From a virus (Duplodnaviria; Caudoviricetes): DNA of 62,494 nucleotides. The notes under the pieces are model-generated. The model was not told the DNA's origin, did not search any database, and worked only from the letters and a program-made list of their open reading frames with translations. Positions 632-62,494 of the stretch are shown piece after piece. Position 1 is the stretch's first letter, and the number at the start of each line of letters is the position of its first letter. The position numbers and the translations under genes were made by a program. The stretch covers positions 1 to 62,494 of IMG/VR virus record IMGVR_UViG_3300032318_001284, one strand, 5' to 3'.

Positions 632-649
632 GAAACAAGCACGATACCC

Positions 650-656
650 CCATAAA
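650..656 (+). promoter_or_regulatory. CCATAAA candidate late-promoter -10 element
   Basis: Immediately upstream of ATG 658; same heptamer upstream of other late modules (15878, 27730, 42113, 44208); GAAAC ends 14 nt upstream of the CATAAA. Confidence 0.4.
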
Positions 657-657
657 C

Positions 658-1341: not shown

Positions 1342-1350
1342 TCCTCGCGG

Positions 1351-1875: not shown

Positions 1876-1885
1876 GAGTTTTCTA

Positions 1886-2215
1886 ATGCCATCGAAAAAG
1901 GAACAGCCGTCCAGCCCTTCACGAGTTGTGGAGTACAAGGACTTCACCAAGGCGGCGCTGGCTCGCATGCTGGCCGAAGCTGACGCCGGCGCTCGGTTCG
2001 CAGCCATGCCTCTCCACAAGCGCCGCCTCGCCACCGAAGACGATGACGAGGATGACGAGATGACGCAGGAGGCGGACGAAGATCGCGTTGCCCGCGCCGA
2101 TTTGGTCGAAACCACCCGCCCGGGGAATGCTCCCGAAGTGGACGAGGAAGACCTGCCCCGGAACGTGGTCAAGCGCTACGCGGAGAAGCCTAAGAAAGGC
2201 CGGGGCCGGGCGTAA
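1886..2215 (+). CDS. Hypothetical protein (acidic middle, basic tail)
   Basis: AGGAG RBS then ATG 1886; TAATG coupling to the next gene. Confidence 0.7.
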   Translation: MPSKKEQPSSPSRVVEYKDFTKAALARMLAEADAGARFAAMPLHKRRLATEDDDEDDEMTQEADEDRVARADLVETTRPGNAPEVDEEDLPRNVVKRYAEKPKKGRGRA

Positions 2216-5136: not shown

Positions 5137-5138
5137 CC

Positions 5139-10657: not shown

Positions 10658-11020
10658 ATGCCGACCCCGGACCTTGTACGGCCAAAGCGAGTAGACGCGA
10701 AACTGTCGCTGACGAATTTCAATGGCGGTACTGCGCTCGTGACTATCTTCACCGTGCCGGCCAATCAGACCTATCGCATTCGCACGGCCATTTTTTCAAA
10801 CGCCACGGCAAGCATTACTGCGGCGGTAGTCAATTTGCTTATCGGCCGGGGTGGGGCGAACGTGCAAACCTCCAGAACGACCTTAGCCCAGAACGCCACT
10901 ACGTTTCTGGTGCAGGCAAATGACGCCATCTACCTAGAGGCTGGCGATTCGTTGGTCGCGTCCACAGGGCTGAACGTAACTGGCATATTTCTCAGCGTGG
11001 TGTACGAGGTCATCCAGTAA
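10658..11020 (+). CDS. Small virion beta-sandwich protein (paralog of 10303)
   Basis: IRTAIFSN...IYLEAGDSL...YEVIQ. Confidence 0.7.
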   Translation: MPTPDLVRPKRVDAKLSLTNFNGGTALVTIFTVPANQTYRIRTAIFSNATASITAAVVNLLIGRGGANVQTSRTTLAQNATTFLVQANDAIYLEAGDSLVASTGLNVTGIFLSVVYEVIQ

Positions 11021-14000
11021 TGCCGAAAAACAACTACGGCGTTTTGGGCGATTCCTACATCACTCCCGCGCAGCGGGCGTCGTTGGGAGTTCCGTTTACG
11101 GGCGCGCAGTACCGCTACGAGGTTCTTGCTGGTGGCATAACGCCGATCAATCCGCCGCCGCCACCGACAAGTGTTGCGCCGTCGTGGTCGCGCGGTACAT
11201 ACGGTGTGCCCGGCACGGCCGGACAGCCGGGGCAGTGGTTGAGCATTGGAATAGCCTTGTATGAAGGAGACACTGTCACCATCGACCTTCAAGGCCAGAC
11301 GGTGACTATGACAACTGGATACCCGTCGTATCAGCAGTTCACTGTAGGCCCGAACGGCGGCTCCGCAGCCGGCGTGGAGGGCGAACAGCGCTGGTACACG
11401 GGGCAGAACGGCCGAACCTTCAATCTGGCTGCGGTGCTGCTCCAGATCGAAGGCACCACCGCCACGGACACGATCTTCCAGACCGGCGAATACGCATCGT
11501 TCACGGTGGGGCCACCAAGCGACCCGATGATGCCCGCTGCAAACGCCAGCCTCGGCGTCAACTGCGTGGAAGGTTCTCCGGTGAATATCGTCACGTCCGC
11601 TCCCGGCGTGGAGGTGTGGTATCCCATATACACGATTGACCGTGGAACTAGGAACCTGACATGGTCTGCGCCGGCAAGCCCCGGCGGCACGATTACTGGG
11701 TATGCGGTCCAGTATTCCTCTGATGGCGGTGCCAACTGGAGCGACGGCGGTGTTTTCAATAGCACTACCGCCGACCTGTCTAGCCTCAACCTAGCCCCAA
11801 ACACCGCGTACAAGATTGGCGTGGCGACGATTACATCCAACGCCGGGGCCGGCAACTTTTCTATTATCGACACCATCACGCCGCCCGCGAAGTCGGGTGC
11901 GCCAACCAGCGTCACTGGCAGCGAGGGCGATGCACAGGTGTCGCTAACGTGGACGCAGCCGTCAAACACCGGCACTAGCGCGATCACCGACTATCGTATT
12001 CAGTATTCGTCCAACAACGGCAGCACATGGACTACGTTCAGCGATAGTGTCTCCAACGCTACATCTGCGGTGGTGACCGGGCTGACGAACGGAACGTCCT
12101 ATAAATTCCGCGTGGCTGCGATAACGGCTTCAGGGATGCTCGGCGCTTATTCTGCCGCGTCCTCTGCTTACACGCCGGCAGGAACTCCAGTGGCACCCGG
12201 AGCGCCAACGGGGGTCAGCGGCACTGCCGGCGATCAGCAAGTGTCTCTGTCGTGGAGTGCCCCCAGCACCAACGGCGGCTCCGCGATCACCGACTATGTC
12301 GTGCAGTATTCGTCTAACTCGGGTTCGTCGTGGTCTACGTTTAGCGACGGGACTTCCACCAGCACATCGGCAGTCGTGACAGGACTGACCAACGGCACTG
12401 CGTATACGTTCCGCGTGGCCGCGACAAATAGCGTGGGAACAGGCAATTATTCGTCGGCATCTAGCGCCATTACCCCGGCCGCCCCATCGGCCCCCGGCGC
12501 GCCGACGAGCGTCACTGGCAGCGCCGGCAACACACAGGTGTCCCTGTCGTGGACGGCCCCTGCCAGCAGCGGCTCGTCCGCAATCACCGACTATGTCGTG
12601 CAGTATTCAAGCGATTCGGGCTCGTCGTGGTCTACGTTCTCTGACGGCACCAGCACCAGCACTAGCGCAGTCGTGACCGGGCTAACCAACGGCACCGCCT
12701 ATACGTTTCGGGTGGCAGCGACCAACGCCATCGGGACAGGCAACTACAGCACGGCCAGTGGTGCAGTTACCCCCGCCGCTGTGCCCGGGGCACCGACTTC
12801 TGTCAGCGGAACCGCTGGCAACGCACAGGTGTCGCTCACTTGGACTGCCCCATCCAGCAACGGCGGCGCGTCCATCACCGACTACGTTGTGCAGTATTCG
12901 TCTAACTCGGGGTCTTCGTGGTCAACCTTCTCGGATGGCACTAGCGCAACCGCGTCTGCGGTAGTCACCGGGCTGACCAATGGCACTGCGTACACGTTCC
13001 GCGTGGCTGCGGTGAACAGCGTTGGCACTGGCAGTTACAGCACGGCGTCTAGCTCTGTCACGCCCACGGCTGGTAACTGGAATTTCTCCAGCGTCGCGCT
13101 GCTGATGCACATGGAGGGCTCGGGCGCAACATTCACCGACTCGTCATCGGTCGGCAGATCAATCACGGCGCTGGGCAACTCCACGCAGTCGACGGCGCAG
13201 TCGCGTTTCGGCTCAAAGTCATGGCTGTCCGATGGAAGCGGCGACTACCTGACGTTTGGCGGCGGCAGCACGCTGACGATGGGCACTGGCGATTTCACCA
13301 TCGAGATGTGGCTGCGGCTCACTTCCTACGCGCAAGCGTCTCTGTGGGAGTCCACGCCGATTGGCGGATCGGGCGGGCGAGACTCTGGATTCATCTGGTA
13401 CATCGTCAGCGATGGGACAGTGTACCTGTTCCACGACGGATCAAACATCCTGTCGACAAGCAGTGCAATCATCCCGCTGTCGCAGTGGTCGCACGTTGCC
13501 TTGTCGCGGGCGAGTGGAACCACTCGCATGTACGTTGACGGGTCACAAGTCGCGTCAACGTCGTCCTCGTACAACGACACTGCCGCCGGTGGAGCAATCG
13601 GCGCGTTCTGCGACGGCGGATCGTTCAGCGTAGACGGCTACATAGACGAGGTGCGTGTATCTCGCGGCATTGCAAGATACAGCGGTAGTACGCTCACGGT
13701 CCCGACCGCTGCCTTTCCAGATAGCGATGCTCCCGGGGCACCCACCTCGGTTACGCCAACTGCCGGGGACGCATCGGTGTCCCTGTCGTGGACTGCCCCA
13801 TCCAACATCGGCGAAGGGGGCGCGATCACTGACTATGTGGTTCAATACTCGTCAAACAGCGGCTCGTCGTGGACTACCTTCAGCGACGGCACCAGCGCTA
13901 CGGCCAGCGCTAACGTGACCGGCCTGACAAACGGAACTGCTTATGTCTTCCGCGTGGCAGCGACCAACGCAGCCGGCACCGGCTCCTACTCGACGGCTTC

Positions 14001-14694
14001 CAGCAGCGCTACTCCCAGCGGCGGCTCGTTTTCGCCCATGGCGGTCATGCTCACTAGCGGAACGAGTTACGCCGTCCCGTCTGGCGCAACCAGCATGAAA
14101 GCGTGGGCAGTGGGTGGCGGGAGTTCGTCTTACGCGAACAGCACGGCCAGCGCAGGCGGTGGCGGCGGCTGCGCCTACAAGACATGGAGCGTGAGCGGCG
14201 GATCGACGGTTACCTACTCCTGCGGCACCGGCGGCACCGTCAACGGCTCTAGCGCCGCTGGAGGCAACACTACCGTCACCTATGGCGGCGCAACAATTAC
14301 GGGCAACGGCGCGTCTGGAAGGCCCGGCGGAAACCAATACTGGGGCGTTGGAGGCTCTTACTCTGGCGGCGACGGCGGCGCGAACGGCGGCGACGGTGGC
14401 GGTTCGGTCGATAGTTCTTCGGGCGCAGGCGGTGCTGTTGGCGGCAACGGAACATCTACAGGGTGTGGCCGTTACCCCATGAGCGACGTTAGCGGGCTGA
14501 AGGCCGCTCTAACGCTGGCGGGCGTATCCACTACGGAGTCCTGCGACACAACGGCAGCGTTCGGCTCGGGTGGTGTATCCAACAAGTTTGGCAACAAGAA
14601 ATCCGCTGGCTATGGCGGCGGCGGCTTGGCCGATCCCTACGGCTCTTACGGCGTAGCCGGTGGGCCGGGCGCGGTTGTGCTTTCGTTTTCGTAA
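11020..14694 (+). CDS. Fibronectin type III repeat / LamG / Gly-rich tail or adhesin protein
   Basis: About six FN3 units (VSLSWTAP...ITDYVVQYS...VTGLTNGTAYTFRVAATN), a LamG domain (GDFTIEMW...WSHVA...GYIDEVRVSRG) and a Gly-rich C-terminus. Confidence 0.92.
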   Translation: MPKNNYGVLGDSYITPAQRASLGVPFTGAQYRYEVLAGGITPINPPPPPTSVAPSWSRGTYGVPGTAGQPGQWLSIGIALYEGDTVTIDLQGQTVTMTTGYPSYQQFTVGPNGGSAAGVEGEQRWYTGQNGRTFNLAAVLLQIEGTTATDTIFQTGEYASFTVGPPSDPMMPAANASLGVNCVEGSPVNIVTSAPGVEVWYPIYTIDRGTRNLTWSAPASPGGTITGYAVQYSSDGGANWSDGGVFNSTTADLSSLNLAPNTAYKIGVATITSNAGAGNFSIIDTITPPAKSGAPTSVTGSEGDAQVSLTWTQPSNTGTSAITDYRIQYSSNNGSTWTTFSDSVSNATSAVVTGLTNGTSYKFRVAAITASGMLGAYSAASSAYTPAGTPVAPGAPTGVSGTAGDQQVSLSWSAPSTNGGSAITDYVVQYSSNSGSSWSTFSDGTSTSTSAVVTGLTNGTAYTFRVAATNSVGTGNYSSASSAITPAAPSAPGAPTSVTGSAGNTQVSLSWTAPASSGSSAITDYVVQYSSDSGSSWSTFSDGTSTSTSAVVTGLTNGTAYTFRVAATNAIGTGNYSTASGAVTPAAVPGAPTSVSGTAGNAQVSLTWTAPSSNGGASITDYVVQYSSNSGSSWSTFSDGTSATASAVVTGLTNGTAYTFRVAAVNSVGTGSYSTASSSVTPTAGNWNFSSVALLMHMEGSGATFTDSSSVGRSITALGNSTQSTAQSRFGSKSWLSDGSGDYLTFGGGSTLTMGTGDFTIEMWLRLTSYAQASLWESTPIGGSGGRDSGFIWYIVSDGTVYLFHDGSNILSTSSAIIPLSQWSHVALSRASGTTRMYVDGSQVASTSSSYNDTAAGGAIGAFCDGGSFSVDGYIDEVRVSRGIARYSGSTLTVPTAAFPDSDAPGAPTSVTPTAGDASVSLSWTAPSNIGEGGAITDYVVQYSSNSGSSWTTFSDGTSATASANVTGLTNGTAYVFRVAATNAAGTGSYSTASSSATPSGGSFSPMAVMLTSGTSYAVPSGATSMKAWAVGGGSSSYANSTASAGGGGGCAYKTWSVSGGSTVTYSCGTGGTVNGSSAAGGNTTVTYGGATITGNGASGRPGGNQYWGVGGSYSGGDGGANGGDGGGSVDSSSGAGGAVGGNGTSTGCGRYPMSDVSGLKAALTLAGVSTTESCDTTAAFGSGGVSNKFGNKKSAGYGGGGLADPYGSYGVAGGPGAVVLSFS
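11890..13070 (+). repeat. Tandem ~290-bp FN3-coding repeats (4 adjacent, another at ~13730-14020)
   Basis: Recurring ATCACCGACTA, CAGTATTCG, GGCTGACCAACGGCAC and TTCCGCGTGGC segments. Confidence 0.85.
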
Positions 14695-24962: not shown

Positions 24963-25418
24963 GCCCGGTTGCCATGGATGGCCTGAAGTTCGGCTTGCCG
25001 CCTAACCGCCTGTAGCAGGGCGAGAGCGGCCCCTGCGGGGGCACGACAAGAGCAAGCGCACCCGCTGTTGACCCACCCCTCCCGGGGTAATCCAGCGGCA
25101 TGTGGAATAAGCCCGGTATGCTGCCGACTCCAGCCCGGACTGAAAGGCCAAGCGGCCCATCCACACGGGGCGAAGGTTTGAAGGCCAGTGAACCCCGTGA
25201 AAAACACGCACTGCCCGATCTTGCCCGGCTCCGAAGGGTGCCTGTCAGGGCCGACTCTCCCATAACAGGGGGAGTCGGTCTGCCCTCACCCAAGGGTGCC
25301 GGCTCAAGGAATTGTCGCGCATTTCCCGCATGTAAACTGCCCCCCAAAGTGCAGCCTAACAGCATCAGCCTCAATCTTCAGATTCACCACTATCGTTAAC
25401 TACAAGCGAGAGGAAGAA
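24963..25418 (+). ncRNA. Candidate structured non-coding RNA or replication-origin element
   Basis: No credible ORF; several stems, including a ~90-nt nested hairpin at 25220-25308. Confidence 0.4.
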
Positions 25419-25736
25419 ATGGCGAGACTCGGTTCTGAACTGGACCCGATAGACTACGAGCCGAAGGGAAATGCAGTGATTGCCGCGACCAACAGCCCCA
25501 CTTGCAAGACCTGCCATTTCTTTGAGAGGATTGCCGGCCGCTACGACAACAAGTACGGCCGGTGCTTACGCAATCCGCCCCAGTTCGTGGAGTATTCCGC
25601 GCTGAACGGAGACTGGCCGGTGATCAAGGAAGACCAATGGTGCGGAGAGCATGATCAACATTCAGACGTTTCGCGGCGCAGACCTCCCGCCATTCCTAGC
25701 TCAGGGGATGGTTCCTCTAACGAACCGAAACTCTGA
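25419..25736 (+). CDS. Small Cys-rich phage protein
   Basis: CKTCHFF...GRCLRNPP...WP....WCGE; GAGG RBS. Confidence 0.75.
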   Translation: MARLGSELDPIDYEPKGNAVIAATNSPTCKTCHFFERIAGRYDNKYGRCLRNPPQFVEYSALNGDWPVIKEDQWCGEHDQHSDVSRRRPPAIPSSGDGSSNEPKL

Positions 25737-29980: not shown

Positions 29981-30207
29981 ACCTCCATCTGGAGTTCTTC
30001 TACAAGGTGGCCGAGCGTTTCGGCGTGCCTGTAGTCCTGCTTCTGGTGGTCATGTGGTGGGCCAAGAACGATTTGGTGCAGCCATTGCTCGACGCCCACT
30101 TCGATTTCATCCGCAAGATTACAGTTGCCCACGATAAGCAGGCCGATGAGTTGTCTGGGATAGGCGACAAGCTGGACACGCTTATCCGCATATCAGACAA
30201 CAAATGA
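29977..30207 (+). CDS. Holin-like single-TM protein
   Basis: GTGA overlap; ERFGVPVVLLLVVMWW followed by a coiled coil. Confidence 0.55.
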   Translation: MNLHLEFFYKVAERFGVPVVLLLVVMWWAKNDLVQPLLDAHFDFIRKITVAHDKQADELSGIGDKLDTLIRISDNK

Positions 30208-30725
30208 GAAAGCGCCGACGCCTGACCGTGGCGCAGCAGCGCATGGCAGAAGACTGCCTGCGTTTCTGCAAGCCGGCGATAGCCACGTTCCTGAAACGGA
30301 ACCCCGACCTCCGGGCCAGCGCCCGGCGGGTGGACTTGGAGAGCGTGGCGATGCAGGCTGTGGTCATGGCGGCGACCACGTACAAGCCAGAGAGAAGTTT
30401 GCCGACAACCTACTTCGGCTCCGCTATCCGGCACGCCCTGTTTAGGGAAGTGCTGACGCAGGCCAAGCAGGACGGCAGGTATGTCACAGTAGAAAAGATA
30501 CTGGACCCTGAACCGGTGGGGCACCGCACCCGTCAGGAGATGCGGGCCCTGAAAGCCATCCGCATGCTGTCCGCTTATGATCGGACGCTGCTGGAAGACC
30601 GGCTTATAGAGGCAGTCACGTTAGAACAGCTAGGTCTAGAGCAAGGACTTGACCCACGAACGATTGCCAAGCGAGTTCGTGAAGCCGTTGAGAAACTGCG
30701 GCAGGCCGAATCAAACCTTCCCTGA
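30204..30725 (+). CDS. Phage-encoded sigma70-family sigma factor (regions 2 and 4 only)
   Basis: DLESVAMQAVVMAATTYKPERS..TTYF..AIR (region 2); LSAYDRTLL...TLEQLG...RTIAKRVREAVEKLR (region 4 HTH). Confidence 0.8.
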   Translation: MRKRRRLTVAQQRMAEDCLRFCKPAIATFLKRNPDLRASARRVDLESVAMQAVVMAATTYKPERSLPTTYFGSAIRHALFREVLTQAKQDGRYVTVEKILDPEPVGHRTRQEMRALKAIRMLSAYDRTLLEDRLIEAVTLEQLGLEQGLDPRTIAKRVREAVEKLRQAESNLP

Positions 30726-31463: not shown

Positions 31464-31495
31464 TCAACCCTCCCCGGTTGTTTGGTTAGAGATGG

Positions 31496-31541
31496 AAAAA
31501 AGAAAGGGGCGGGGGCCACGATGTTGTGGAACCCCCGCCCC
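31496..31541 (-). terminator. Intrinsic terminator upstream of the recombinase
   Basis: GGGGCGGGGG/CCCCCGCCCC stem followed on the minus strand by TTTCTTTTT. Confidence 0.75.
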
Positions 31542-35653: not shown

Positions 35654-37048
35654 TCAGCCGACATAGCTGGGCGCCTCCTTCGTCAGGTCAACGACACGGG
35701 CCCACTTTGGAGGGGCACAGTCGTGGGCGACAGCAGCCACCACGAGACGGGCACGAGTGGGCTTGTTGGGCCAGTGCGTGCCGCAGTCAGTCACGATCAC
35801 GATGCAGTCGGGACGGTACTTCGCATCGGCATACTCGATGGCATGCTGCATCCCCGTGCCGCCGCCACCGCACCACTTGAAGTCCCGCATCGAGGCAAAC
35901 CGTGCGTCCCCCTGCAAGCCATCGTCCCACGAGATGACCCGTGGATTCCGCAGCCGCCGCACACCCTGCGTGATGGCAGTCACAGCACGGGCTACGCGAT
36001 CACTCTGGGCACCGCGCCCCATTGAGCCAGACGTGTCAAGAATAATCACGCACTCCGGGTTCATGCGGATGACGCCGCGAACAGGGAAGTCATCGTGCTG
36101 CTGCATCCGGCCGGGCTTGCGGAACGTGTACTCGTCCACTCCCACTACCGTGGATGTTTCCTTGCCAACGATGGACTTCAACTGGTCATAGGGATCGGGT
36201 TGCCGGCGAAGCCGCACGTTCAGCGACTGCGACAACCTCCCCATCCCCTTGCCCATGCCCGGTCCGCCATCGTCTTCCATCTGCTGCCGGACTTCCTCCA
36301 GCCGGGCCAGATTGCCGGCCGTGCTGGCAAGATCGGACTCCAATTCGTAGTCCTGCTTGACGCCGTCAGATGCAGACCCGGACTTGCCGTGTGGCTGCTT
36401 GCCCTTGGGCTGCTTGCCAGTGCCGGGAGAACCGCCGCCGTCGCCGCTATCGTCCGATGGCTGGCCACCGGAACCCTGCTGCTGCCCCGGTTGGCTGGGC
36501 TGATTACCGGGCCCCTGACCGGGCTGTTTGCCGGGCTGCGGCTGATTGCCGGGCTGCTGACCGGGCGGCTTGGGCTGTTGCGGATTGCCGTTGTTCCACA
36601 GTATGCCGTAGTACCGCTCGGTCGAGAGTCCGGGCACCATCTCGGGGATGTGGGAGTAGTTGTCCAGTTCCACGGATGGCAGCGGACGATACTTGTCCCA
36701 GTCCGCCAGAATCTGCTGGATGCACAGGTCTGCGGCCTCGTTCCACTTCTCCAGCATCTCCGGGGTGGCTTCGGGTATGGCCTGCTCCCGTCGCTCGGCA
36801 TGGTTCAGCAGGTTGTGGCACATCTCGTGCAGCAGAACGTAGGCGTTCTGTTCCACGCCCCACTGGTTGACCCACTCGGGGTTGATGTAGAGCCTGCCGT
36901 CGCAGTCCACGCCCATGGTGGGCACCCCGTCATCGAAGATCGTCGGGCATCCCTCCAGATACCCGCCGAGGTACTTCATCCACGCTTGGGCAATCTCCTT
37001 TGCCTTGCTCACTGCGACGATATGCGTCGGCAGTTTGGTAGTCGCCAT
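35654..37048 (-). CDS. HEXXH metallopeptidase-like plus vWA domain protein (DUF2201-like)
   Basis: TMGVD, LLHEMCH...H..R, WN.AAD; Q/P/G linker; MIDAS motifs DTSGSM, GGGT, TD. Confidence 0.9.
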   Translation of the reverse strand: MATTKLPTHIVAVSKAKEIAQAWMKYLGGYLEGCPTIFDDGVPTMGVDCDGRLYINPEWVNQWGVEQNAYVLLHEMCHNLLNHAERREQAIPEATPEMLEKWNEAADLCIQQILADWDKYRPLPSVELDNYSHIPEMVPGLSTERYYGILWNNGNPQQPKPPGQQPGNQPQPGKQPGQGPGNQPSQPGQQQGSGGQPSDDSGDGGGSPGTGKQPKGKQPHGKSGSASDGVKQDYELESDLASTAGNLARLEEVRQQMEDDGGPGMGKGMGRLSQSLNVRLRRQPDPYDQLKSIVGKETSTVVGVDEYTFRKPGRMQQHDDFPVRGVIRMNPECVIILDTSGSMGRGAQSDRVARAVTAITQGVRRLRNPRVISWDDGLQGDARFASMRDFKWCGGGGTGMQHAIEYADAKYRPDCIVIVTDCGTHWPNKPTRARLVVAAVAHDCAPPKWARVVDLTKEAPSYVG

Positions 37049-37074
37049 GTTGCAAACCTTTCTGAGTTAGAGTT

Positions 37075-37118
37075 GCCACGGGGCGTAGCTGCGCATTCGC
37101 CTTACTACGCCCCGTGGC
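37075..37118. other. Perfect 14-bp intergenic stem-loop
   Basis: GCCACGGGGCGTAG / CTACGCCCCGTGGC with no U-tract. Confidence 0.7.
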
Positions 37119-37139
37119 GGGGAGTGAATCGACAAGGAA

Positions 37140-38237
37140 TCAAGCCATGATCTGGGCCAGCAGATTGCCGAACCGCTCCAGATAGGCGGACGGCGGACGG
37201 TAGCCGGGCTTGATCAGAGCAATCGCAGACAGCGGCTGCTTGACAGCATCGACCATGCCCTTCTCGCCAAGGGTCAGCAGCACGACGAACGCACGGTCCA
37301 CCATGTCGCTCGTCAGGTTCCCCTCGTCCTTCGCCATCTGGGCGTGGAAGATGAGGGCGGACGGCAACTGGAACAGGCGGTCCAGCTTGTCGTTGAAGTT
37401 GACCTGCTTCTTGCCCTCCATAACGTCACGAGCGGAGTACAAATCCATGGCCTCCGCGAACGTGACGAACAGGGTGGCAGCGGTCTGGCCGACGCAGCCA
37501 GACACGAACTTCACGAAGTCCTTGGACTCCGCACCGACAGCGGACAAACCAGCACAGCCCTTCTTCACGTAGTCCCACTGCCGCAGACTGGGGAACGACA
37601 AGGCATCGGGCTCCACGGCCTTGGTTTCCACGAAATCCGGCTTGCTCTCAAGGAACAGCCGAATCTTGCGACCCCACGCCATATCCCCGATCTCGCTGTT
37701 CTTCACAACGGGAATCTTGGGCTTGGGGTAGACGCCGGACTCGATGCCGATCAAGAAGTCCTGAACGGGCGTCTCCCACTTCCAGTGGAAGAACCGGTTC
37801 AGCACCGAACCCTCAAACGGGGTGGCGTTGGGGGCGATCTCCGGCGGGTTGGCAGCAGCGGTCACGATGAGGTCCGGGGCGAAACTCATGTTGCCGATCC
37901 GCCGCTCGCTCGGGTTGACGATGGACAGCGTGACGGCACGCATCATCGAGGAACCCGTGTTGGCCTCGTCCAGATGCCACCAGCGGTTGGGCAGCGTCAG
38001 GTCGTGCATCTCCTCCAGCGGGACCATCTTCACCATGTTCTGCTCGCGGTAGATGGACGGCATGCCGGTCATCTCCTCGGGCAGGTGGTGGGTGGGCAGG
38101 AAGGCGTGGAACTTCTTCCCCGCAGCGACAGCACAAGCCTCGATAGAGGCAGTCTTCGCCACGCCAGTACCGCCCCATGCCATGGACGGTACACCGACCT
38201 GTGCCGCCACGTAGAACGGCAGGTTCTTCAGACTCAT
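37140..38237 (-). CDS. MoxR-like AAA+ ATPase
   Basis: WGGTGVAKT (Walker A variant), HLDEAN (Walker B), AANP, LNRF and PSLRQW. Confidence 0.88.
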   Translation of the reverse strand: MSLKNLPFYVAAQVGVPSMAWGGTGVAKTASIEACAVAAGKKFHAFLPTHHLPEEMTGMPSIYREQNMVKMVPLEEMHDLTLPNRWWHLDEANTGSSMMRAVTLSIVNPSERRIGNMSFAPDLIVTAAANPPEIAPNATPFEGSVLNRFFHWKWETPVQDFLIGIESGVYPKPKIPVVKNSEIGDMAWGRKIRLFLESKPDFVETKAVEPDALSFPSLRQWDYVKKGCAGLSAVGAESKDFVKFVSGCVGQTAATLFVTFAEAMDLYSARDVMEGKKQVNFNDKLDRLFQLPSALIFHAQMAKDEGNLTSDMVDRAFVVLLTLGEKGMVDAVKQPLSAIALIKPGYRPPSAYLERFGNLLAQIMA

Positions 38238-38271
38238 CGGAAACACTCCCCAGTGTCAAAGGAAAGGAAAC

Positions 38272-38307
38272 AAAAACCGGGGGGGGCCGGCAACACGCCG
38301 GCCCCCC
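38272..38307 (-). terminator. Intrinsic terminator fused to conserved motif copy A
   Basis: GGGGGGCCGGC/GCCGGCCCCCC stem then CCGGTTTTTG on the minus strand. Confidence 0.6.
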
Positions 38308-38339
38308 GAAAACCACTCGCCGGGGCGCCTCGCCCATGG
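38308..38339 (-). promoter_or_regulatory. Conserved early-region motif, copy A
   Basis: Minus strand CCATGGGCGAGGCGCCCCGGCGAGTGGTTTTC. Confidence 0.7.
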
Positions 38340-38345
38340 CGACGA

Positions 38346-39248
38346 TCACTTGCCCTGCGACTTGCGGATTTGCAGTTCCGCCAGCAGTTCGCAGGACTTG
38401 GACAACGCGGCCCGGGCAGCTTGCAGGTTCGTGCCGAACTGCGTTTCGTAGTAGTTGGCCAGTTCCGCGAACTCTGCCAACTGCTTCATCCGGGTATCCA
38501 TCCCGTTCTTCCGTGGCGACTTGTTGTTGTCGATGATGTCCTGCATCACATCGTTCATCGACTCACACTCCGTCACCAACGTGTCGTTCGTGGCCTCCAG
38601 CACCTGTTTGACCAGTTGCGGGTTGTTGCGGAGGTCTTGCGTCAACAGGACGCAAGTGCAACCAGCGGAGTTGAGGTCTGCGAAGACCTTGTCCACAGCA
38701 CCGACAGCACAATCGGGAACGAAGTACGCACCGCCCCGCTCCTTGAGCGGAATCCCCTTGTTGCGGCCGATCAGCCCGATCAGTGCATCCGTCACATCCC
38801 GGCTGGGCATGTAGGCGAGATGCCGCTGATACAACTGATTCAGGATCGTGTCCACCTGTGGATTGGCGAAGAAAGCCGCCAAGTTGGGATGGACGCCGAC
38901 CTTGACCACGAACACGGTGTTCGTATCATCGACGCCAAGCGAGAACAGGAACTCACGCTGGTTCTGCTTGTCGCCCTTGTGGGTCTGATAAAACTCCACG
39001 CCGACGCCGGTCCGCGACAAGCTGTCATGCTTGACGGGGGCCTTGCGCTGCTTGATGTTTGCAGCACCCACCACGTTCTTGCCAGTCTCGACCAGAGCGT
39101 CGAAGTTGTCGATGGCGGGGATGTTCTCCTCGCCAACCGCCTTCAGCGCGTTCAGCACCGTCTGCCGCAGCACACGGTGTGCCGTCCAGAGTGCCACACA
39201 GCCGACTGTGGCAATCATGACGCCAGTAAGAGGAATCTTCTGAGCCAT
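38346..39248 (-). CDS. DUF6744/DUF3150-like protein associated with the AAA-vWA module
   Basis: GIPLKERGGAYFVP motif and helical C-terminus; AAGGA RBS before ATG 39248. Confidence 0.7.
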   Translation of the reverse strand: MAQKIPLTGVMIATVGCVALWTAHRVLRQTVLNALKAVGEENIPAIDNFDALVETGKNVVGAANIKQRKAPVKHDSLSRTGVGVEFYQTHKGDKQNQREFLFSLGVDDTNTVFVVKVGVHPNLAAFFANPQVDTILNQLYQRHLAYMPSRDVTDALIGLIGRNKGIPLKERGGAYFVPDCAVGAVDKVFADLNSAGCTCVLLTQDLRNNPQLVKQVLEATNDTLVTECESMNDVMQDIIDNNKSPRKNGMDTRMKQLAEFAELANYYETQFGTNLQAARAALSKSCELLAELQIRKSQGK

Positions 39249-39281
39249 CGCAAAACTGTCCTTTCGTATCGCAGGGAGTGG

Positions 39282-39327
39282 AAAAAGAACCGCTGCCAGT
39301 GAGACTCCCGCACTCACTGGCAGCGGT
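39282..39327 (-). terminator. Intrinsic terminator
   Basis: 15-bp stem ACCGCTGCCAGTGAG/CTCACTGGCAGCGGT then TCTTTTT on the minus strand. Confidence 0.75.
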
Positions 39328-39350
39328 CAAGCTGCACCGACGTACACTCA

Positions 39351-39710
39351 CTAGCCGACGATCTTGAGGATCAGGGCCACAGCGTCACGCAGAGCCAGCA
39401 GGTCAGCGATGCTGATCCCGTTGGCATACGCAGCCGTGTCGATCTCCTCGGCGGTGGGGTCCACGTAGCAGACCTTGGCACCGGAGAGGTTGGAGAACGT
39501 CGTGGCATCGTCCAGCACGACCACCGGAGTGGTAACGCCGGACTCGGCCTTGGCAACAGTCGCCGCCACGGGCTTGACCACGACGGGCTCGGGAACAGCA
39601 GCAACCGGGACCGCAGCGGGCTCCTTAGCCTTGGCAGCGGACTTCTTGGGCTCCACGGCAGCAGCACCTGCCGCCATCTCACGCAAACGGGCCAGAATGT
39701 CATCGGACAT
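39351..39710 (-). CDS. Hypothetical early protein
   Basis: AGGAGG RBS; Ala/Pro linker. Confidence 0.75.
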   Translation of the reverse strand: MSDDILARLREMAAGAAAVEPKKSAAKAKEPAAVPVAAVPEPVVVKPVAATVAKAESGVTTPVVVLDDATTFSNLSGAKVCYVDPTAEEIDTAAYANGISIADLLALRDAVALILKIVG

Positions 39711-39771
39711 AGCAACGAACCTCCTGAAACATGGGGAAACCGAACCACTAACCAGCGGGGCAGGCTACGCT

Positions 39772-39812
39772 GCCGGCCCCGAAAACCCCTCGCCGGGGCG
39801 CCTCGGCCATGG
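39772..39812 (-). promoter_or_regulatory. Conserved early-region motif, copy B
   Basis: Minus strand CCATGGCCGAGGCGCCCCGGCGAGGGGTTTTCGGGGCCGGC. Confidence 0.7.
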
Positions 39813-39823
39813 GCTAAGGCGTA

Positions 39824-40033
39824 CTAACGACTCCTGCGGTAGCACCGCAATGCACGCTGTTCGGAGCCTCGGGGCACAATCACGGCGTATCCGGCCGTCT
39901 TGTGCCCGTACTCCATCAGCACCATACGCGGCGTTTCCCCGGAACAAGCAATGCAGCACACTGCCTTGCCTTGGTTCTTGAGAACACGAACCCGCTCTCT
40001 CGGGATGGGCTGCGAGCAATAGGGGCACTTCAC
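39824..40033 (-). CDS. DksA/TraR-type C4 zinc-finger protein
   Basis: CPYC...IPRER...L......CIAC; AAAGGAG RBS. Confidence 0.7.
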   Translation of the reverse strand: MKCPYCSQPIPRERVRVLKNQGKAVCCIACSGETPRMVLMEYGHKTAGYAVIVPRGSEQRALRCYRRSR

Positions 40034-40045
40034 GATGGGCTCCTT

Positions 40046-40465
40046 TCAGTTATTGTCGAACTCGCGGGGATTGGTGCTGATCTCGATGATGTGGAACTTG
40101 CGATCCTCGGCATACGTGCAGTGCGCATTTACCCAGCCTGACGCCTGCTGTTCGGAGTCAAACGGCCCGACGATGCACTCCTCGTTGAAGTTCTGCCCGT
40201 CCTCCTCCATGAAGTGAACCACCCACGCCCCGACCACCGGAATGTCGCCCTCTTCCAACTCCATCTCCATCTCGCTGTCGAAGACTGCGGTGATTTCGTC
40301 CACCCGCAGAACCAGCGTGCGGATCAGCGTGCGGATGGTGCGGTCATAGTCCGGGGCCTTCGGATCGAGCTTCCACAGTTCGTGGGCAACATCCCGGGCG
40401 GCGTAGACCATCCGTTGCAGGGTCAACAGCCGCATCGTCACAGCCCGGGCCATCTTCGTGAACAT
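40046..40465 (-). CDS. Hypothetical early protein
   Basis: GAGG RBS, ATG 40465; VGPFDSEQQA motif. Confidence 0.65.
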   Translation of the reverse strand: MFTKMARAVTMRLLTLQRMVYAARDVAHELWKLDPKAPDYDRTIRTLIRTLVLRVDEITAVFDSEMEMELEEGDIPVVGAWVVHFMEEDGQNFNEECIVGPFDSEQQASGWVNAHCTYAEDRKFHIIEISTNPREFDNN

Positions 40466-40512
40466 GACAAACCTCGCAGGTTGAAGAACCAAGTACCGTC
40501 GCCGGCGACACT

Positions 40513-40555
40513 GCCGGCCTCCGAAAAACCCTCGCCGGGGCGCCTCGGGCATGGG
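40513..40555 (-). promoter_or_regulatory. Conserved early-region motif, copy C
   Basis: Minus strand CCCATGCCCGAGGCGCCCCGGCGAGGGTTTTTCGGAGGCCGGC. Confidence 0.7.
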
Positions 40556-40695
40556 GCTATAGGCGATAGCAAACCCAACGCCATGCGGCCAAAACGGCCC
40601 GAACGCCCATCCGCCCATGGGGGCACTCCCGGCCACGCTCTACCTGCACCTGTACCTGTACCAGTTGCGGTACAGATACACGCCATGGCAAGCCG

Positions 40696-40722
40696 GCCCC
40701 GGCGAGAGCTTGTTGCCGGGGC
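40696..40722 (+). promoter_or_regulatory. Conserved early-region motif, copy E (degenerate)
   Basis: GCCCCGGCGAGAGCTTGTTGCCGGGGC with an 8-bp stem. Confidence 0.55.
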
Positions 40723-40765
40723 GAGTGCCCCGCTAGCGACGTTTCCCTTAACTTTGGAGGCTACC

Positions 40766-41113
40766 GTGGCAATGCAAGAGCGAACCGTGACGATCATCAA
40801 GCAGGACGGATGGGACGAGTACATGGCCGAACACCACGGCCACACGGCGTTCACCAACGCGATTGGCTACCTGTCCGAATGGAACATGTGGGCCAACCGC
40901 TTCGACAGCGTTCGCATCACCTGCTCCCTTGGTCGCAATGGGGACCAGCCGGAGATCGGCGCCAGCTACACCCGCACCGAGTATGACTGCGGCAATGGCC
41001 GGAAGTCGGCCACAGTGACGGACGGATACTTCATCTGCGCCATCTTCCAGCCGCAGCAGTCGGCGTCAGAAGACGAACAGGCCCGTCTCGCCCGCTTCTC
41101 GTTCCACTCTTGA
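40766..41113 (+). CDS. Hypothetical early protein
   Basis: GGAGG RBS at 40756; ends FSFHS. Confidence 0.7.
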   Translation: MAMQERTVTIIKQDGWDEYMAEHHGHTAFTNAIGYLSEWNMWANRFDSVRITCSLGRNGDQPEIGASYTRTEYDCGNGRKSATVTDGYFICAIFQPQQSASEDEQARLARFSFHS

Positions 41114-41298
41114 ACCGCCCCACTGTGCCAAACACCGGACCAACAACCCATGTACATGGCTGCTTGTTCCAGTTGTTCCGGCCACAACGGTTCAAACGCC
41201 CTCAAATCCGGCCCAAACGCCATGATCCCACGTTGGGTGGGCATGGCATGGGCCGGTATTCGACAAGCTATCTATAGTCGCCGTTCCGCTATTCCAGC

Positions 41299-41351
41299 GG
41301 CGCCCCGGCGAGAGCTTTTCAGCCGGAGCGGTCGCCGGCAGTATCGACCGC
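41299..41351 (+). promoter_or_regulatory. Conserved early-region motif, copy D
   Basis: GGCGCCCCGGCGAGAGCTTTTC followed by a GCGGTCG/CGACCGC hairpin with a CCGGCAGTAT loop. Confidence 0.65.
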
Positions 41352-41376
41352 AGAGTTTTTAAGAGGGAGTTTCACA

Positions 41377-41799
41377 ATGGCCCGTATTACTTCCACCCCT
41401 TCCCCGGTCCAGCACCAGCCCGCCGACATGGCTGCGCTTTTGAAAGAGTTGGCCGACCTGCGGTCCGCCCTGTCTTCGGCGCAGTCCCGGGGAGCCCGCA
41501 AACCGGGTTTCCATGTCCGGCCTGTCCCCGTGCCCAAAAAGCCGGGTACGCCGCCTGCCCGGGCTCTGGCCGACGTGGTACTGCCGGGCGGCTCGATCAC
41601 CCTGTCGCTCTACGTGGGAGCCCACGGGAAAGCGACGTTCGGGGGTGGGTTCGGTTCGCGGGGGTTCGGCTTGTGGGGGGAGGACGTTGGCCCCTTCTGC
41701 GATTGGTGCGAGTCGGGGGCGCTCCGTGCGGCTCTGAGTCGGCCGGAAATCGCGGCTCATCTGGAGCCCCGTTGGAACGGCACTGGCGCCGCGGAGTGA
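41377..41799 (+). CDS. Hypothetical early protein
   Basis: GAGGGAG RBS; 140 aa. Confidence 0.7.
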   Translation: MARITSTPSPVQHQPADMAALLKELADLRSALSSAQSRGARKPGFHVRPVPVPKKPGTPPARALADVVLPGGSITLSLYVGAHGKATFGGGFGSRGFGLWGEDVGPFCDWCESGALRAALSRPEIAAHLEPRWNGTGAAE

Positions 41800-42200
41800 T
41801 GCCCGGACAACCGGGACGGGCATGATGCCCGATGGATCGACAGCCGGCCCGGGGCGCATGGAAGCGTCCCGGGCCGGTTTCATTTCATGCGCCGCACGGC
41901 ACGCCGTCCCCATGGGCGGCGCGGCGCCGTGGCCGAAGGTACGTTCGGCCACACTCTAACGCCGTCCCCATGCAGCACATACGGCACAGACGGACCCCGC
42001 CCACCCCCAATGGGCGACCCAAGGAGCCCACGTACCCCCTCTGGATTTTTTCCCAAATACCTCACTGCCCCTCGGCTGGGGGGGATGCTGACTCTGGCGT
42101 CAAGTTTTTTTGCCATAAAACGTGACATGCTGACGTGCTGACGCTGCTGACATGCTGACACCGACTTCCCAGATACAGGCAGGCCCGCTATAACCCCCGC
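41799..42200. other. Non-coding hairpin/repeat region; candidate packaging terminus or origin
   Basis: Four stem-loops, direct repeat ACGCCGTCCCCATG (41901, 41959), GTACCCCCTCTGGATTTTTTCCC tract and TGCTGAC repeats. Confidence 0.5.
42128..42159 (+). repeat. Tandem TGCTGAC x4 (another copy at 42086)
   Basis: Copies at 42128, 42136, 42145 and 42153. Confidence 0.9.
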
Positions 42201-42201
42201 C

Positions 42202-42513
42202 ATGCTCCAGTGGCTAAAAGAACGGTGGTCGGAGTTTGAGGCTTACCGCACCGGGCGGTGGAGTTCTTGGAGGAAGCGGCACCTTGAACGGGAGCCCGAG
42301 TGTCAGGCGTGCCGGACGGTGGAGGAGTTGGAAGTCCACCACATCCTGCCTGTGCATGCCGGCGGGCCGGAGCTTGCTCCCCCGGAGGGCATGATCACGC
42401 TGTGCCGGGAATGCCACTTCTATCTGGGGCACGCCTGCGACTGGTCGGCTTGGAGGCCGGATGTCCGGCATTTAGCAGAAGTCATTCGGACAGCCGAAGT
42501 CCGAAGGTTGTAG
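42202..42513 (+). CDS. HNH endonuclease
   Basis: W...R..HL.REPECQAC...LEVHHILP...ITLCRECH. Confidence 0.88.
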   Translation: MLQWLKERWSEFEAYRTGRWSSWRKRHLEREPECQACRTVEELEVHHILPVHAGGPELAPPEGMITLCRECHFYLGHACDWSAWRPDVRHLAEVIRTAEVRRL

Positions 42514-42544: not shown

Positions 42545-42700
42545 ATGCGTTCGCTCGTTCTCGCGCTCGCCCTGTCCGGCTGCTGTTCGGTGTCGATGGC
42601 TGGCCATTGCTGCCACCCGGTTCGCTCGGGCGTTGCCCGGGTGTTCCACGCCGCCAAGAAGATCGTCAAGGCCCCGTTCAGGGCGGTGCGGTGTCGCTAG
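42545..42700 (+). CDS. Small secreted/lipoprotein-like cationic peptide (not in the ORF track)
   Basis: AAGGAG RBS; MRSLVLALALSGC...VARVFHAAKKIVKAPFRAVRCR*. Confidence 0.65.
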   Translation: MRSLVLALALSGCCSVSMAGHCCHPVRSGVARVFHAAKKIVKAPFRAVRCR

Positions 42701-43170
42701 ACATCCTGACCCCCAAGGGCCAGAAATCTCTGGAGTACGCCCGGCGTGCTGCGGAGATTTGGACTAAGTACAGCACCGGCTGGCAGTACGCCCGGACCCC
42801 AGAGGATTCGGACTGTCCGTTCGACGCGGTGTTGATAGACCCCGATGGAACGGTCCGGGCCATCGTGGAGCAAAAGTCCCGTGATTTGTCGAGAAGCCAA
42901 CTGGCCGAGTTCAACTACGAGTGGCTGGTCACCATGGACAAGATCGTCCAAGCCAGCCAGTGTGCCCGGCTGTTCAGAGTCCCCCTCATCGGGTTCCTGT
43001 ACCTTATCCCAGACGATACCCTGCTAACCCGGGTGATCGCTGACAACAAGGGGTTGTTCTGCGTACCGTTCCGGTGTGAACAGACCGTCACGCAGCAAAC
43101 GATTAACGGCGGGCTTGCCCTTCGCGGCAACGCATACATGGACATGCGGGAAGCACGGTCTATCCCCTGA
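42691..43170 (+). CDS. PD-(D/E)XK nuclease-fold protein
   Basis: PFDAVL...IVEQKSR. Confidence 0.65.
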   Translation: MSLDILTPKGQKSLEYARRAAEIWTKYSTGWQYARTPEDSDCPFDAVLIDPDGTVRAIVEQKSRDLSRSQLAEFNYEWLVTMDKIVQASQCARLFRVPLIGFLYLIPDDTLLTRVIADNKGLFCVPFRCEQTVTQQTINGGLALRGNAYMDMREARSIP

Positions 43171-43795: not shown

Positions 43796-44197
43796 ATGAT
43801 CCAAGCAACCGTCACCGGCAATCTGGGCCGTGATCCAGAACTGAAGGACACCCGTACCGGCAAGAAGATGGCTACCTTCTCGGTGGCCAGCACTACGAAG
43901 CGGGACGGGAAAGACCCAGAGACTACGTGGCTGGATGTCGTTTGCTTCGACAGGCTGGCAGAGGACGCCGCCGGAAATTTCCGCAAGGGGATGAAGGTGA
44001 TCGTTCTCGGCCAGTTGTCGATGGAGACGTTCGCCCGCAAGGACGGGACCGAAGGTTCTGCTTTGCGGATGGTCGCCAACGACATTGGGCTGATGGTTCG
44101 CACCAAGCAGGAGCGTGACGAGGGCGACGATCAGCCGCCCGCCCGTCAGGCCCCGCCGCAGAGCAAGCCGGCTCGATCCAGAAACGAGCCTTGGTAG
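43796..44197 (+). CDS. ssb: Single-stranded DNA-binding protein
   Basis: GNLGRDPELK, FSVA, TTW..V..F, KG..V.V.G.L; C-terminal EPW. Confidence 0.93.
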   Translation: MIQATVTGNLGRDPELKDTRTGKKMATFSVASTTKRDGKDPETTWLDVVCFDRLAEDAAGNFRKGMKVIVLGQLSMETFARKDGTEGSALRMVANDIGLMVRTKQERDEGDDQPPARQAPPQSKPARSRNEPW

Positions 44198-44207
44198 GTT
44201 TGGATGA

Positions 44208-44247
44208 CCATAAAAGGGGAGAGTCCACGGAGATTCCCCCTTTATGG
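44208..44247 (+). promoter_or_regulatory. Hairpin containing CCATAAA that sequesters the ATG at 44244
   Basis: CCATAAAAGGGGA pairs with TCCCCCTTTATGG (one mismatch). Confidence 0.55.
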
Positions 44248-61977: not shown

Positions 61978-62494
61978 CAACAACGCTCTTGTACAAGCGT
62001 TGACTGACGGCGGCATTACGCCAGCCGCCGCCAGAATTATTGCCAACGCTCTGGCGAACGCGAACACTCCCCAGTATGCGCGCACTAGGGACATCGCAGA
62101 CGCAACACCCCGCGACCAACTCCGGCTCATAGACGCCGACACCCGGCGATACCTGCTGACGAATCTGGACTACTCCAGCGAGACTCCCTATCAGTCCAGC
62201 CTGCAATCAAATCCGGGCCAGTATGCGGGCGGGCCGGCGGACCATCCCTACAAAGACGCCCAGCCCGTGGCTCCCGTGCCGCCGCTTTCCCAGAACGCCG
62301 TGGCGGCTGGCGACTACATCAGCGTGGACAACGGGGTGCAAGACAGCGCTCAGGTTGCCACCGTCAGCCTGAAGCTCGGAGCGAAGACCGGCCCGCACAT
62401 GCGGATCAACTCGGCCACAAAGGCGGTCGAGGCCGTGCCGATTGTTTTTAATTCTCCGCAAGGGCTGGTAACAGGCTCCATTTCCATAGACCCC
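61967..62494 (+). CDS. N-terminal part of the tail-collar protein that continues at 20-631
   Basis: ATG 61967 (MAVDNNALVQ...) is open to the window end and joins in frame after the 19-nt overlap is removed. Confidence 0.88.
   Translation, partial: MAVDNNALVQALTDGGITPAAARIIANALANANTPQYARTRDIADATPRDQLRLIDADTRRYLLTNLDYSSETPYQSSLQSNPGQYAGGPADHPYKDAQPVAPVPPLSQNAVAAGDYISVDNGVQDSAQVATVSLKLGAKTGPHMRINSATKAVEAVPIVFNSPQGLVTGSISIDP
62476..62494 (+). repeat. Terminal direct repeat/assembly overlap (copy 2)
   Basis: Identical to 1-19. Confidence 0.97.

Follow-up and report, generated by a model that had tools for sequence, protein, structure and literature searches.

The viral record IMGVR_UViG_3300032318_001284, analyzed here over its whole length of 62,494 bases (hereafter the window, or G000 when compared with other genomes), carries five copies of a short GC-rich motif (about 25-40 bases, with two hairpins that overlap) in the intergenic spaces around its single point of divergent transcription, and every copy faces the next gene. 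Judged from its sequence, distribution and conservation, this motif is a real phage-specific gene-control signal; it is a conserved, gene-oriented cis signal other than a sigma-70 promoter, and is probably read by a phage factor. We tentatively propose that the copies are composite transcription-control (promoter/terminator) cassettes of the phage early region, which would act at the level of DNA together with a phage specificity factor. An initial annotation of the same DNA had described the copies and interpreted them as antitermination sites similar to lambda nut and HK022 put or as promoters or operators read by a phage factor, an interpretation that is partly supported by the results described below.

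Distribution and orientation of the motif

The core of the motif, the 14-mer GGCGCCCCGGCGAG, occurs exactly four times in the window, at 38316-38329, 39789-39802 and 40531-40544 on the minus strand (copies A, B, and C) and at 41299-41312 on the plus strand (copy D), as compared to 0.01 occurrences expected, and four occurrences were reached in 0 of 100 shuffles. Searching the 18-nt pattern that includes the TTTTC tail with up to three mismatches recovered these four and a further one at 40697-40714(+) (five observed against 1.12 expected, 0/100 shuffles); the core of this fifth, degenerate copy (copy E, 40693-40706 on the plus strand) shares 11 of its 14 bases with GGCGCCCCGGCGAG. The 14-mer at up to two mismatches is a looser criterion, since eight matches were reached in 1 of 100 shuffles, and the four extra matches that it yielded (12496, 45609, 47005, and 57086) are regarded as chance occurrences because every one of them lies inside a long open reading frame (ORF). 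A profile built from the 11 copies of the window and of its closest relative, G001, recovered just those 11 in the 280,335 bases searched, and a literature search for the 14-mer gave no match.

All five cores are located in non-coding DNA, which according to the ORF map accounts for 10.6% of the window. With gene starts taken from the ORF map of this analysis, the distance from the core to the next start codon is 78 nt for copies A and B, 65 nt for C, 64 nt for D and 59 nt for E, and the orientation of the motif switches between 40544 and 40693. This confirms the initial description of five intergenic copies that face genes and flip near 40.6 kb, four of them being exact and one degenerate. 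The window carries 19 identical bases at both ends (1-19 and 62476-62494), hence the assembly is circular; nearly all genes are read rightward, from 40766 round the circle to 30725, and one operon is read leftward, from 40465 to 30711. These gene directions leave a single divergence point, at 40466-40765, around which the motif copies are placed.

Alignment of the 11 copies from the window and G001 gave the consensus unit C(C/T)ATGG-N4-G(G/C)CGCCCCGGCGAG-N-G, in which the N before the final G is A, T or G; GCCCCGGCGAG and a G two bases further are invariant. The longer extension reported for copies A-C was recovered as well, as 54 nt held in common at 69-81% identity. The unit begins 6-10 nt past the stop codon of the upstream gene and occupies the entire spacer, and the genes behind it have good ribosome sites.

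Conservation in related phages

The motif region was compared with that of three relatives, G001, G002, and G003, whose ATPases are 89, 75, and 33% identical to that of the window, respectively. G001 (61,113 bases) is the sole close relative in the viral and metagenome collections and is 69-77% identical in this region; the exact 22-nt pattern had no match in the viral contig collection, and a protein scan returned the G001 contig alone from metagenome contigs and nothing from genome contigs. Related ATPases numbered 23, at 32-96% identity, and an alignment of 20 related ATPases was used to pull out more distant viral contigs.

G001 possesses six motif copies. At all four orthologous sites the core is unchanged (14/14 bases), while the other two copies have one base changed each, and one of these heads an extra gene. 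Between the window and G001, spacers A and D contain no exact block of 12 nt or more other than the core; spacers B and C hold one or two extra exact blocks, namely a ribosome-site block and a block upstream of C, and two further short blocks in motif-bearing spacers match non-syntenic places in G001. The fact that the core is exact while the spacers are otherwise about 70% identical indicates selection on the sequence itself. In G002 the core of the window is absent and is replaced by the 17-mer GGGTCGGCAAGTGCCGG, identical in two copies, which stand before the 119-aa-like gene and before the ATPase gene, i.e., in the same two spacers as in the window; the contig of G002 ends before the divergent region. 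G003 has seven copies of a 6-7 bp hairpin followed by 4-5 bases and then by AGCGATGGC, located 56-95 nt ahead of a ribosome site and start codon, all inside 5.6 kb, four of them facing left and three facing right of its own divergence point, and this hairpin form is found nowhere else in G003. Behind the element, all four phages have another GC hairpin and a stretch rich in T or in pyrimidines. As judged from these sequence comparisons, the layout is conserved across the clade and the recognized sequence is private to each lineage. Conservation in related phages, which the initial annotation had named as a test of its proposal, was thus found with a lineage-specific core. A layout that is kept while its sequence is lineage-specific points to a co-evolving phage factor, and the finding that the motif changes in step within a genome fits a factor acting in trans.

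The relatives also differ in gene content in this region. The interval between copies E and D holds one 115-aa gene in the window and two unrelated genes plus an extra motif copy in G001, and the interval between C and B holds two genes (139 and 69 aa) that stand in opposite order in G001, one of them being only 29% identical. Both content differences of the region are therefore located between motif copies.

When 185,579 species genomes were scanned for the box together with the core, at least 120 loci were obtained, which have a single match each and are scattered over GC-rich taxa. Among the loci listed, a second core within 2 kb was present in 0 of 120, and none encodes a relative of eight phage proteins. 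As far as the genomes scanned show, the motif does not appear to be a clustered host repeat; a host REP-like repeat, which would have spoken against the initial annotation, is thus not indicated among the matches listed.

Two observations on hairpins in the relatives are added here. In G003 (246-5895) the hairpins carry G-N-A triloops closed by C:G in six of the seven copies, on the sense strand, and triloops of this kind are characteristic of DNA mini-hairpins of high stability as well as of N4 early promoters. In G004, a more distant relative, three intrinsic terminators between early genes (268-2234) have a common, GGAGAAATCCTTGG-like loop sequence, which represents another lineage-specific motif tied to hairpins.

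Hairpins and terminators associated with the motif

Two hairpins can be drawn at each copy. H1 is formed between the core segment GCCCCGG(C) and a G-rich stretch that lies 7-14 nt downstream of it; this hairpin was found in all 11 copies of the window and G001 (the H1 loops of the window measure 7-14 nt), and H2 follows it. As controls, 119 genomic sites that carry this box and core by chance, among the matches listed, were folded. H1 was more stable in the phage copies (mean of -18.8 as compared to -13.0 kcal/mol, Mann-Whitney p 8e-4), the core formed more pairs with downstream sequence (11.1 as compared to 6.6, p 1e-5), and the 3' arm of H1 overlapped the 5' arm of H2 by 6-14 nt in 11/11 copies as compared to 36/119 controls, although these p-values are overstated because the 11 copies are kin. 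By contrast, H2 was no more stable than in the controls (p 0.12), and sense and antisense strands folded equally well, the sense strand being favored in 11 of 20 cases (Wilcoxon p 0.43). In three window copies H1 is closed by a G-T pair, which is tolerated by the sense strand only. H1 is not kept in G002 or G003.

Covariation, which the initial annotation had set as a test of an RNA structure, was nearly absent. The 5' arm of H1 is invariant across copies, so that H1 does not lend itself to a covariation test, and leftward copies form H1 in another register than rightward copies. RNAalifold was applied to orthologous sets of two to three sequences each and predicted 23, 17, and 20 pairs, of which 2, 2, and 4 were compensatory, with structures that were inconsistent between sets; a few compensatory changes between orthologs fall in H2, e.g., C-G to G-C in copy D.

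The individual copies differ in how these parts are realized. Copy A (38272-38345, minus strand) has the box CCATGG at 38334-38339 and TTTTC at 38308-38312; the 3' arm of its H1 overlaps H2, which here is a terminator hairpin at 38307-38281 of 12 pairs (11 of them G-C) with a T run reaching to about 38272, upstream of the ATPase gene starting at 38237. Copy B (39722-39823, minus strand) has the box CCATGG at 39807-39812, overlapping H1 and H2 and a pyrimidine-rich tail ahead of the 119-aa gene starting at 39710. In copy C (40485-40565, minus strand) the box reads CCATGC (40549-40554) and H2 is of the form GCCGGC...GCCGGC; the 139-aa gene behind it starts at 40465, and a further conserved block lies at 40573-40588. 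On the plus strand, the degenerate copy E (40672-40752) has the box CCATGG at 40683-40688, the core-like sequence CCGGCCCCGGCGAG and an H1 stem of GCCCCGGC and GCCGGGGC, and precedes the 115-aa gene with its GTG at 40766. Copy D (41278-41358, plus strand) has a weak box, CTATTC, the H1 3' arm GCCGGAGCG at 41322-41330 and an H2 of GCGGTCG/CGACCGC at 41328-41351 followed by a T run, and the ATG of the 140-aa gene is at 41377.

A canonical T run directly after H2 is present in one of the five window copies, namely copy A, and is missing from the G001 ortholog of A; the tails past H2 are pyrimidine-rich in most copies. Two more terminators are located on the minus strand in the leftward operon, as initially described: T1 (39283-39335), a 14-bp stem with a T run between the 119-aa and 300-aa genes, and a hairpin with a T run at 31494-31541, near the end of the operon and upstream of the resolvase-family gene. 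T1 is kept in the window, G001, and G002 with differing stem sequences. Since the leftward operon is punctuated by terminators, some read-through is needed. The proposed tie between the motif and terminators holds for copy A, which runs into its terminator as claimed, but no other window copy has a canonical terminator, and the conserved terminator at 39.3 kb has no adjoining motif, which means that the motif is not tied to T1.

Candidate readers of the motif

The window encodes an ECF-type sigma factor of 173 aa (30204-30725, plus strand; TIGR02937, E 1e-10, with 41.5 bits just under the cut-off of 42.9), which is the best-conserved protein among the four phages (91, 89, and 64% identity in G001, G002, and G003). 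The DNA-reading residues of such factors are held by the sigma2 and sigma4 segments. Here, the sigma2 stretch (YFGSAIRHAL) and the sigma4 stretch (C-terminal helix-turn-helix) are unchanged from G000 to G002 and nearly so in G003, whereas the core differs in G002 and is unrecognizable in G003. Therefore, the sigma factor does not read the variable core. The suggestion that a phage factor reads the motif is retained as probable, as the core changes by lineage within a kept layout, while the sigma factor as that reader is not supported.

No promoter consensus could be assigned to the motif. Pairs of sigma-70-like hexamers (TTGACA/TATAAT) between 30000 and 45000 numbered 3 as compared to 3.1 expected and none of these three lies at a motif spacer, in agreement with the initial annotation, with the limit that the host's own consensus may differ. 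No shared bipartite pattern corresponding to ECF-type -35/-10 elements at 16-17 nt spacing was present in the aligned copies, and a sigma-54 promoter was rejected because the GG/GC spacing does not fit the -24/-12 rule. RNA polymerase families were not matched among 54 ORFs (Pfam, PHROGs) or 23 ORFs (NCBIfam), a search that remote homologs could escape, and the T7 motif-B pattern was not found in 13 large ORFs. No match to antiterminator-type protein families was obtained, and no protein showed the pattern of being the same in G000 and G001 and changed in G002. A leader peptide starting at the ATG of CCATGG, with a frame that crosses the core, was considered and rejected: in copy A of G001 an extra base between box and core shifts the frame, copy D of the window has no ATG, and no ribosome site stands ahead of any copy.

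Promoters of the phage sigma factor itself were not found. G000, G001, and G002 all keep a block (G)AACGAGCCTTGGTAGG-N12-CATAAA with a hairpin behind it (44174-44243 in window coordinates), directly ahead of the gene that opens the structural module at 44244. This block, which was considered as a candidate shared late-promoter motif for the sigma factor, is single-copy and may represent a late promoter or another control site.

Proposed function of the cassettes and alternative explanations

We propose that each cassette consists of four parts, i.e., the box C(C/T)ATGG; after four further bases the core G(G/C)CGCCCCGGCGAG(A/T/G)G, which is invariant; a short stretch rich in T; and the GC hairpin H2 with its pyrimidine-rich tail, and that it extends over the spacer between the stop codon of a gene and the ribosome site of the following gene. 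Box and core would be a DNA recognition site for the host RNA polymerase aided by a phage-encoded specificity factor, which would be distinct from the phage sigma factor and would co-evolve with the core. Transcription might start in or just past the T-rich stretch, the sole easily melted part, so that H2 would be the 5' hairpin of the new mRNA, and this H2, which in copy A has a T run, may also end or weaken transcripts arriving from the upstream gene. The cassettes would thus be terminator/promoter units comparable to the PeSL motifs of T4-type phages, and like these they would mark the points where relatives exchange small early genes. Because the cassette fills the whole spacer, it must contain whatever promoter the next gene has, and because no phage RNA polymerase was found, the host polymerase must do the work. 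This explanation was ranked first because the cassettes fill the spacers, lie at a 5'-leader distance from good ribosome sites, cluster at the only divergence point, change in step within each genome and mark swap borders. Several points weigh against it. No -35/-10 pair of a known sigma type fits in the sigma-70, ECF, and sigma-54 spacing checks; an invariant GC-rich core as promoter spacer or upstream element would be unusual; a promoter firing into the strong terminator of copy A would be awkward unless the start lies inside the hairpin; the gene of the factor was not found among the phage proteins compared; a cassette is missing ahead of the 300-aa gene behind T1, which means that read-through is still required for some genes; and an H1 that is better than chance is unexplained by a pure DNA site.

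An attenuator acting on RNA is the alternative ranked second. In this explanation, which is possible but doubtful, the cassette would be transcribed from a promoter further upstream and the core would form H1 in competition with the terminator or pause hairpin H2; a phage RNA-binding protein would read the core and the GAG loop and hold H1, so that the polymerase passes, with one site per hairpin as in RAT-like switches. It is favored by the presence of H1 in all copies and its strength relative to the controls, by the overlap of H1 and H2 arms in every copy, by the full terminator that forms H2 in copy A and the pyrimidine-rich tails of most copies, by the terminators within the operon, which imply some control of read-through, and by the G-T pairs that only the sense strand tolerates. 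Yet the 5' arm is invariant and the leftward and the rightward copies do not pair in the same H1 register, both strands fold equally well, the stability of H2 equals that of controls, a canonical T run follows H2 only in copy A and not in its G001 ortholog, H1 is not kept in G002 and G003, the p-values are inflated by kinship of the copies, and no antiterminator-type family was matched. A bolder form, a multi-site switch in which each early gene of this phage clade has its own attenuator and all are opened together by one phage RNA-binding protein that clamps the core into H1 and blocks H2, appears rather unlikely; if true, it would amount to a non-processive, phage-wide antitermination without a known protein family, based on an RNA-protein pair that co-evolves so fast that close relatives use different cores. 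By analogy with the stoperators of Cluster A mycobacteriophages, the core could instead be an asymmetric operator at which a phage repressor shuts the divergent early promoters and blocks elongation in each spacer according to orientation. This would be consistent with an asymmetric invariant site in short intergenic spaces whose orientation follows transcription (PMC9283540), with a lineage-specific site sequence, as expected of immunity specificity, and with the resolvase-family recombinase and small helix-turn-helix protein of 114 aa encoded by the phage. Nevertheless, this third-ranked possibility is unlikely, given that there are just 5-7 sites per genome within 3-6 kb of the divergence point (in the window five in 3.1 kb and none elsewhere), that no usual immunity repressor or integrase was recognized among the scanned phage proteins, and that the hairpins would be left unexplained.

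Lower probabilities apply to the remaining explanations. Repeats without a regulatory role, i.e., recombination borders or selfish small repeats homogenized by gene conversion in the early region, would resemble one another within a genome and differ between genomes, and gene swaps would fall between them, as observed; but at the orthologous sites of G001 the core bases are unchanged within spacers that are not, strict gene orientation and a fixed distance to the start codon are unexpected of selfish repeats, and host-type genomes show no clusters with more than one core among the loci listed, all of which makes such repeats improbable. Slightly less probable still are promoters read by the phage's own ECF-type sigma factor. 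The phage does encode a protein of the sigma-70/ECF family, and private short motifs are known for phage sigma factors, e.g., gp36 of phiEco32 (PMC12276001), but in addition to the constancy of the sigma2 and sigma4 stretches and the lack of a -35/-10 pair at ECF spacing common to the copies, the sigma gene comes at the distal end of the long run of rightward genes. N4-like promoters that consist of a DNA hairpin and are recognized by an RNA polymerase carried in the virion are suggested by the gp24-like ATPase followed by a DUF2201/VWA gene and by the stems and triloops of the G003 hairpins. They are close to refuted for the window, as none of the scanned ORFs matched a virion or T7-like RNA polymerase, the H1 loops are longer than 3 nt, and the G-N-A loop of G003 is on the sense strand, where N4 rules would send transcription away from the genes.

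The four uncultivated phages have a common plan: there is a single divergent control region, and a private repeat together with hairpins precedes each of the first five to seven genes around it. All four have no recognizable polymerase and share one sigma factor that cannot explain the repeat. The motif provides a testable handle on early-gene timing in a clade without a cultured member, and it points to a specificity factor: should this factor bind RNA, it would be a new kind of antiterminator, and should it bind DNA, a new promoter-specificity or repressor protein. Moreover, the cassettes mark exchange points of early genes, which helps to annotate such contigs.

Genome context

By its ORF map and family scans, the window is a tailed phage. 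Its record is rated complete and is the whole viral record, with a GC content of about 61%; no tRNAs were found in it, and no Rfam family reached its gathering score over the whole window. Recognized genes encode a P22-like portal, a major head protein and tail-collar fibers, Erf, an exonuclease and a helicase, an HNH protein adjoining probable packaging genes, a recombinase of the resolvase/invertase type (250 aa), and an ATPase followed by a DUF2201/VWA protein, besides the sigma factor. For a 1180-aa protein, ESM Atlas returned viral hypothetical clusters only, and a PDB sequence search gave no match (best E 0.8).

The leftward genes behind copies C, B, and A (37140-40465, minus strand) encode proteins of 139 aa (40046-40465), 69 aa (a zinc ribbon, 39824-40033), 119 aa (39351-39710) and 300 aa (38346-39248) and the N4 gp24-like ATPase (37140-38237), and the rightward genes behind E and D (40766-41799, plus strand) encode proteins of 115 aa (40766-41113) and 140 aa (41377-41799). 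The 69-aa protein, with a CxxC...CxxC pattern and an IPxxR stretch, is present within the motif region of all four phages at 52-77% identity; its zinc-ribbon pattern resembles that of TraR/DksA-type polymerase binders, with no such match in Pfam. The ATPase is 23% identical to N4 gp24 over 89% of its length (E 3e-6), and together with the DUF2201/VWA gene it forms a pair (35654-38237) that resembles N4 gp24/gp25; N4-type polymerase genes were not found.

Further observations concern other parts of the genome. An ORF of 1224 aa (11020-14694) contains four to five tandem repeats of about 296 nt and is probably a fiber protein with Ig-like domains. Five TGCTGAC repeats and a T run (42080-42170) are located directly upstream of the HNH gene (42202-42513) and a 187-aa gene (42607-43170), and the gap 41800-42201 holds many blocks common to the window and G001; this region may be a pac/cos packaging or terminase-binding site. 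In the gap 24963-25650, a non-coding block of about 140 nt (25160-25296) is 96% identical to G001 and 83% to G002, as compared to about 75% in its flanks, and is absent from G003. Its mismatches are without a spacing by three, it has no Rfam match, and it is predicted to adopt a multi-hairpin fold with four compensatory pairs in a two-sequence alignment; it is a candidate new phage non-coding RNA. Pairing of the motif with this block was considered and rejected, as the duplex energies were no better than those of shuffles (z -1.4 to +1.8).

Comparison with known systems

In the RAT/terminator switches served by BglG/LicT-type antiterminators, each terminator has its own site, a conserved hairpin that shares sequence with the 5' arm of the hairpin following it. 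The overlap of H1 and H2 arms in the phage copies is similar, but no CAT/PRD-type protein was matched, most H2 hairpins have no T run, and the 5' arm is invariant instead of covarying. The lambda nut and HK022 put sites are RNA hairpins past divergent early promoters that let the polymerase pass terminators in a processive manner, with one site per operon. The motif shares with them hairpins near a divergent early region. It differs in that one unit is present per gene and in that its two hairpins are mutually exclusive, not side by side. In the window, each motif-bearing spacer holds one copy, with three among the leftward and two among the rightward genes, and the relatives G001 and G003 have six and seven copies; 5-7 copies per genome do not fit processive nut/put sites. 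Neither a boxA/boxB-like sequence nor, by eye, a 5-bp stem with a pentaloop was seen, and Rfam gave no match at E up to 1 for 38200-41450, where it was not checked whether Rfam holds nut/put models. The initial proposal of nut/put-like RNA elements is accordingly not upheld.

The nut and put antitermination sites are named in PMC4496689, which also describes the N4 early promoter hairpins as having a 5-7 bp stem and a 3-nt G-N-A loop on the template strand. Several GC-rich inverted repeats ahead of early genes, the gp24-like ATPase and the G-N-A triloops of G003 are reminiscent of N4; the differences are that no virion polymerase gene was found, that the loop in the window is far larger, and that the strand in G003 is the wrong one. 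In phiEco32, the sigma factor gp36 reads AATGTA centered at -11.5, according to PMC12276001. A sigma factor of its own and a repeated private motif upstream of genes are common to both phages. However, here the motif varies while sigma2 and sigma4 do not, and it is a GC-rich sequence of 14-24 nt, not a short -10-like element.

The stoperators of Cluster A mycobacteriophages, bound by an L5-type repressor, are asymmetric sites in short intergenic spaces whose orientation follows transcription (PMC9283540). The motif resembles them as an asymmetric, nearly invariant short intergenic site with transcription-tied orientation and lineage-specific variants, but stoperators number more than 20 and are genome-wide, whereas here the few sites are confined to a few kb, hairpins are part of the unit and no matching repressor was found. 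A further comparison is with the PeSLs (promoter-early stem-loops) of T4-type phages, which are composite terminator/promoter motifs located where close relatives have gained, lost or swapped genes (PMC4122927). The early promoter in a PeSL is of the host sigma-70 type, whereas the cassettes described here are without a sigma-70 consensus and have a lineage-variable 14-nt GC-rich core instead; furthermore, the conserved sequence here precedes the hairpins and does not follow a terminator, and host and phage type are unrelated. What both have in common are small repeated stem-loop cassettes between small early genes, oriented with these genes and placed at the borders of gene swaps between close relatives.

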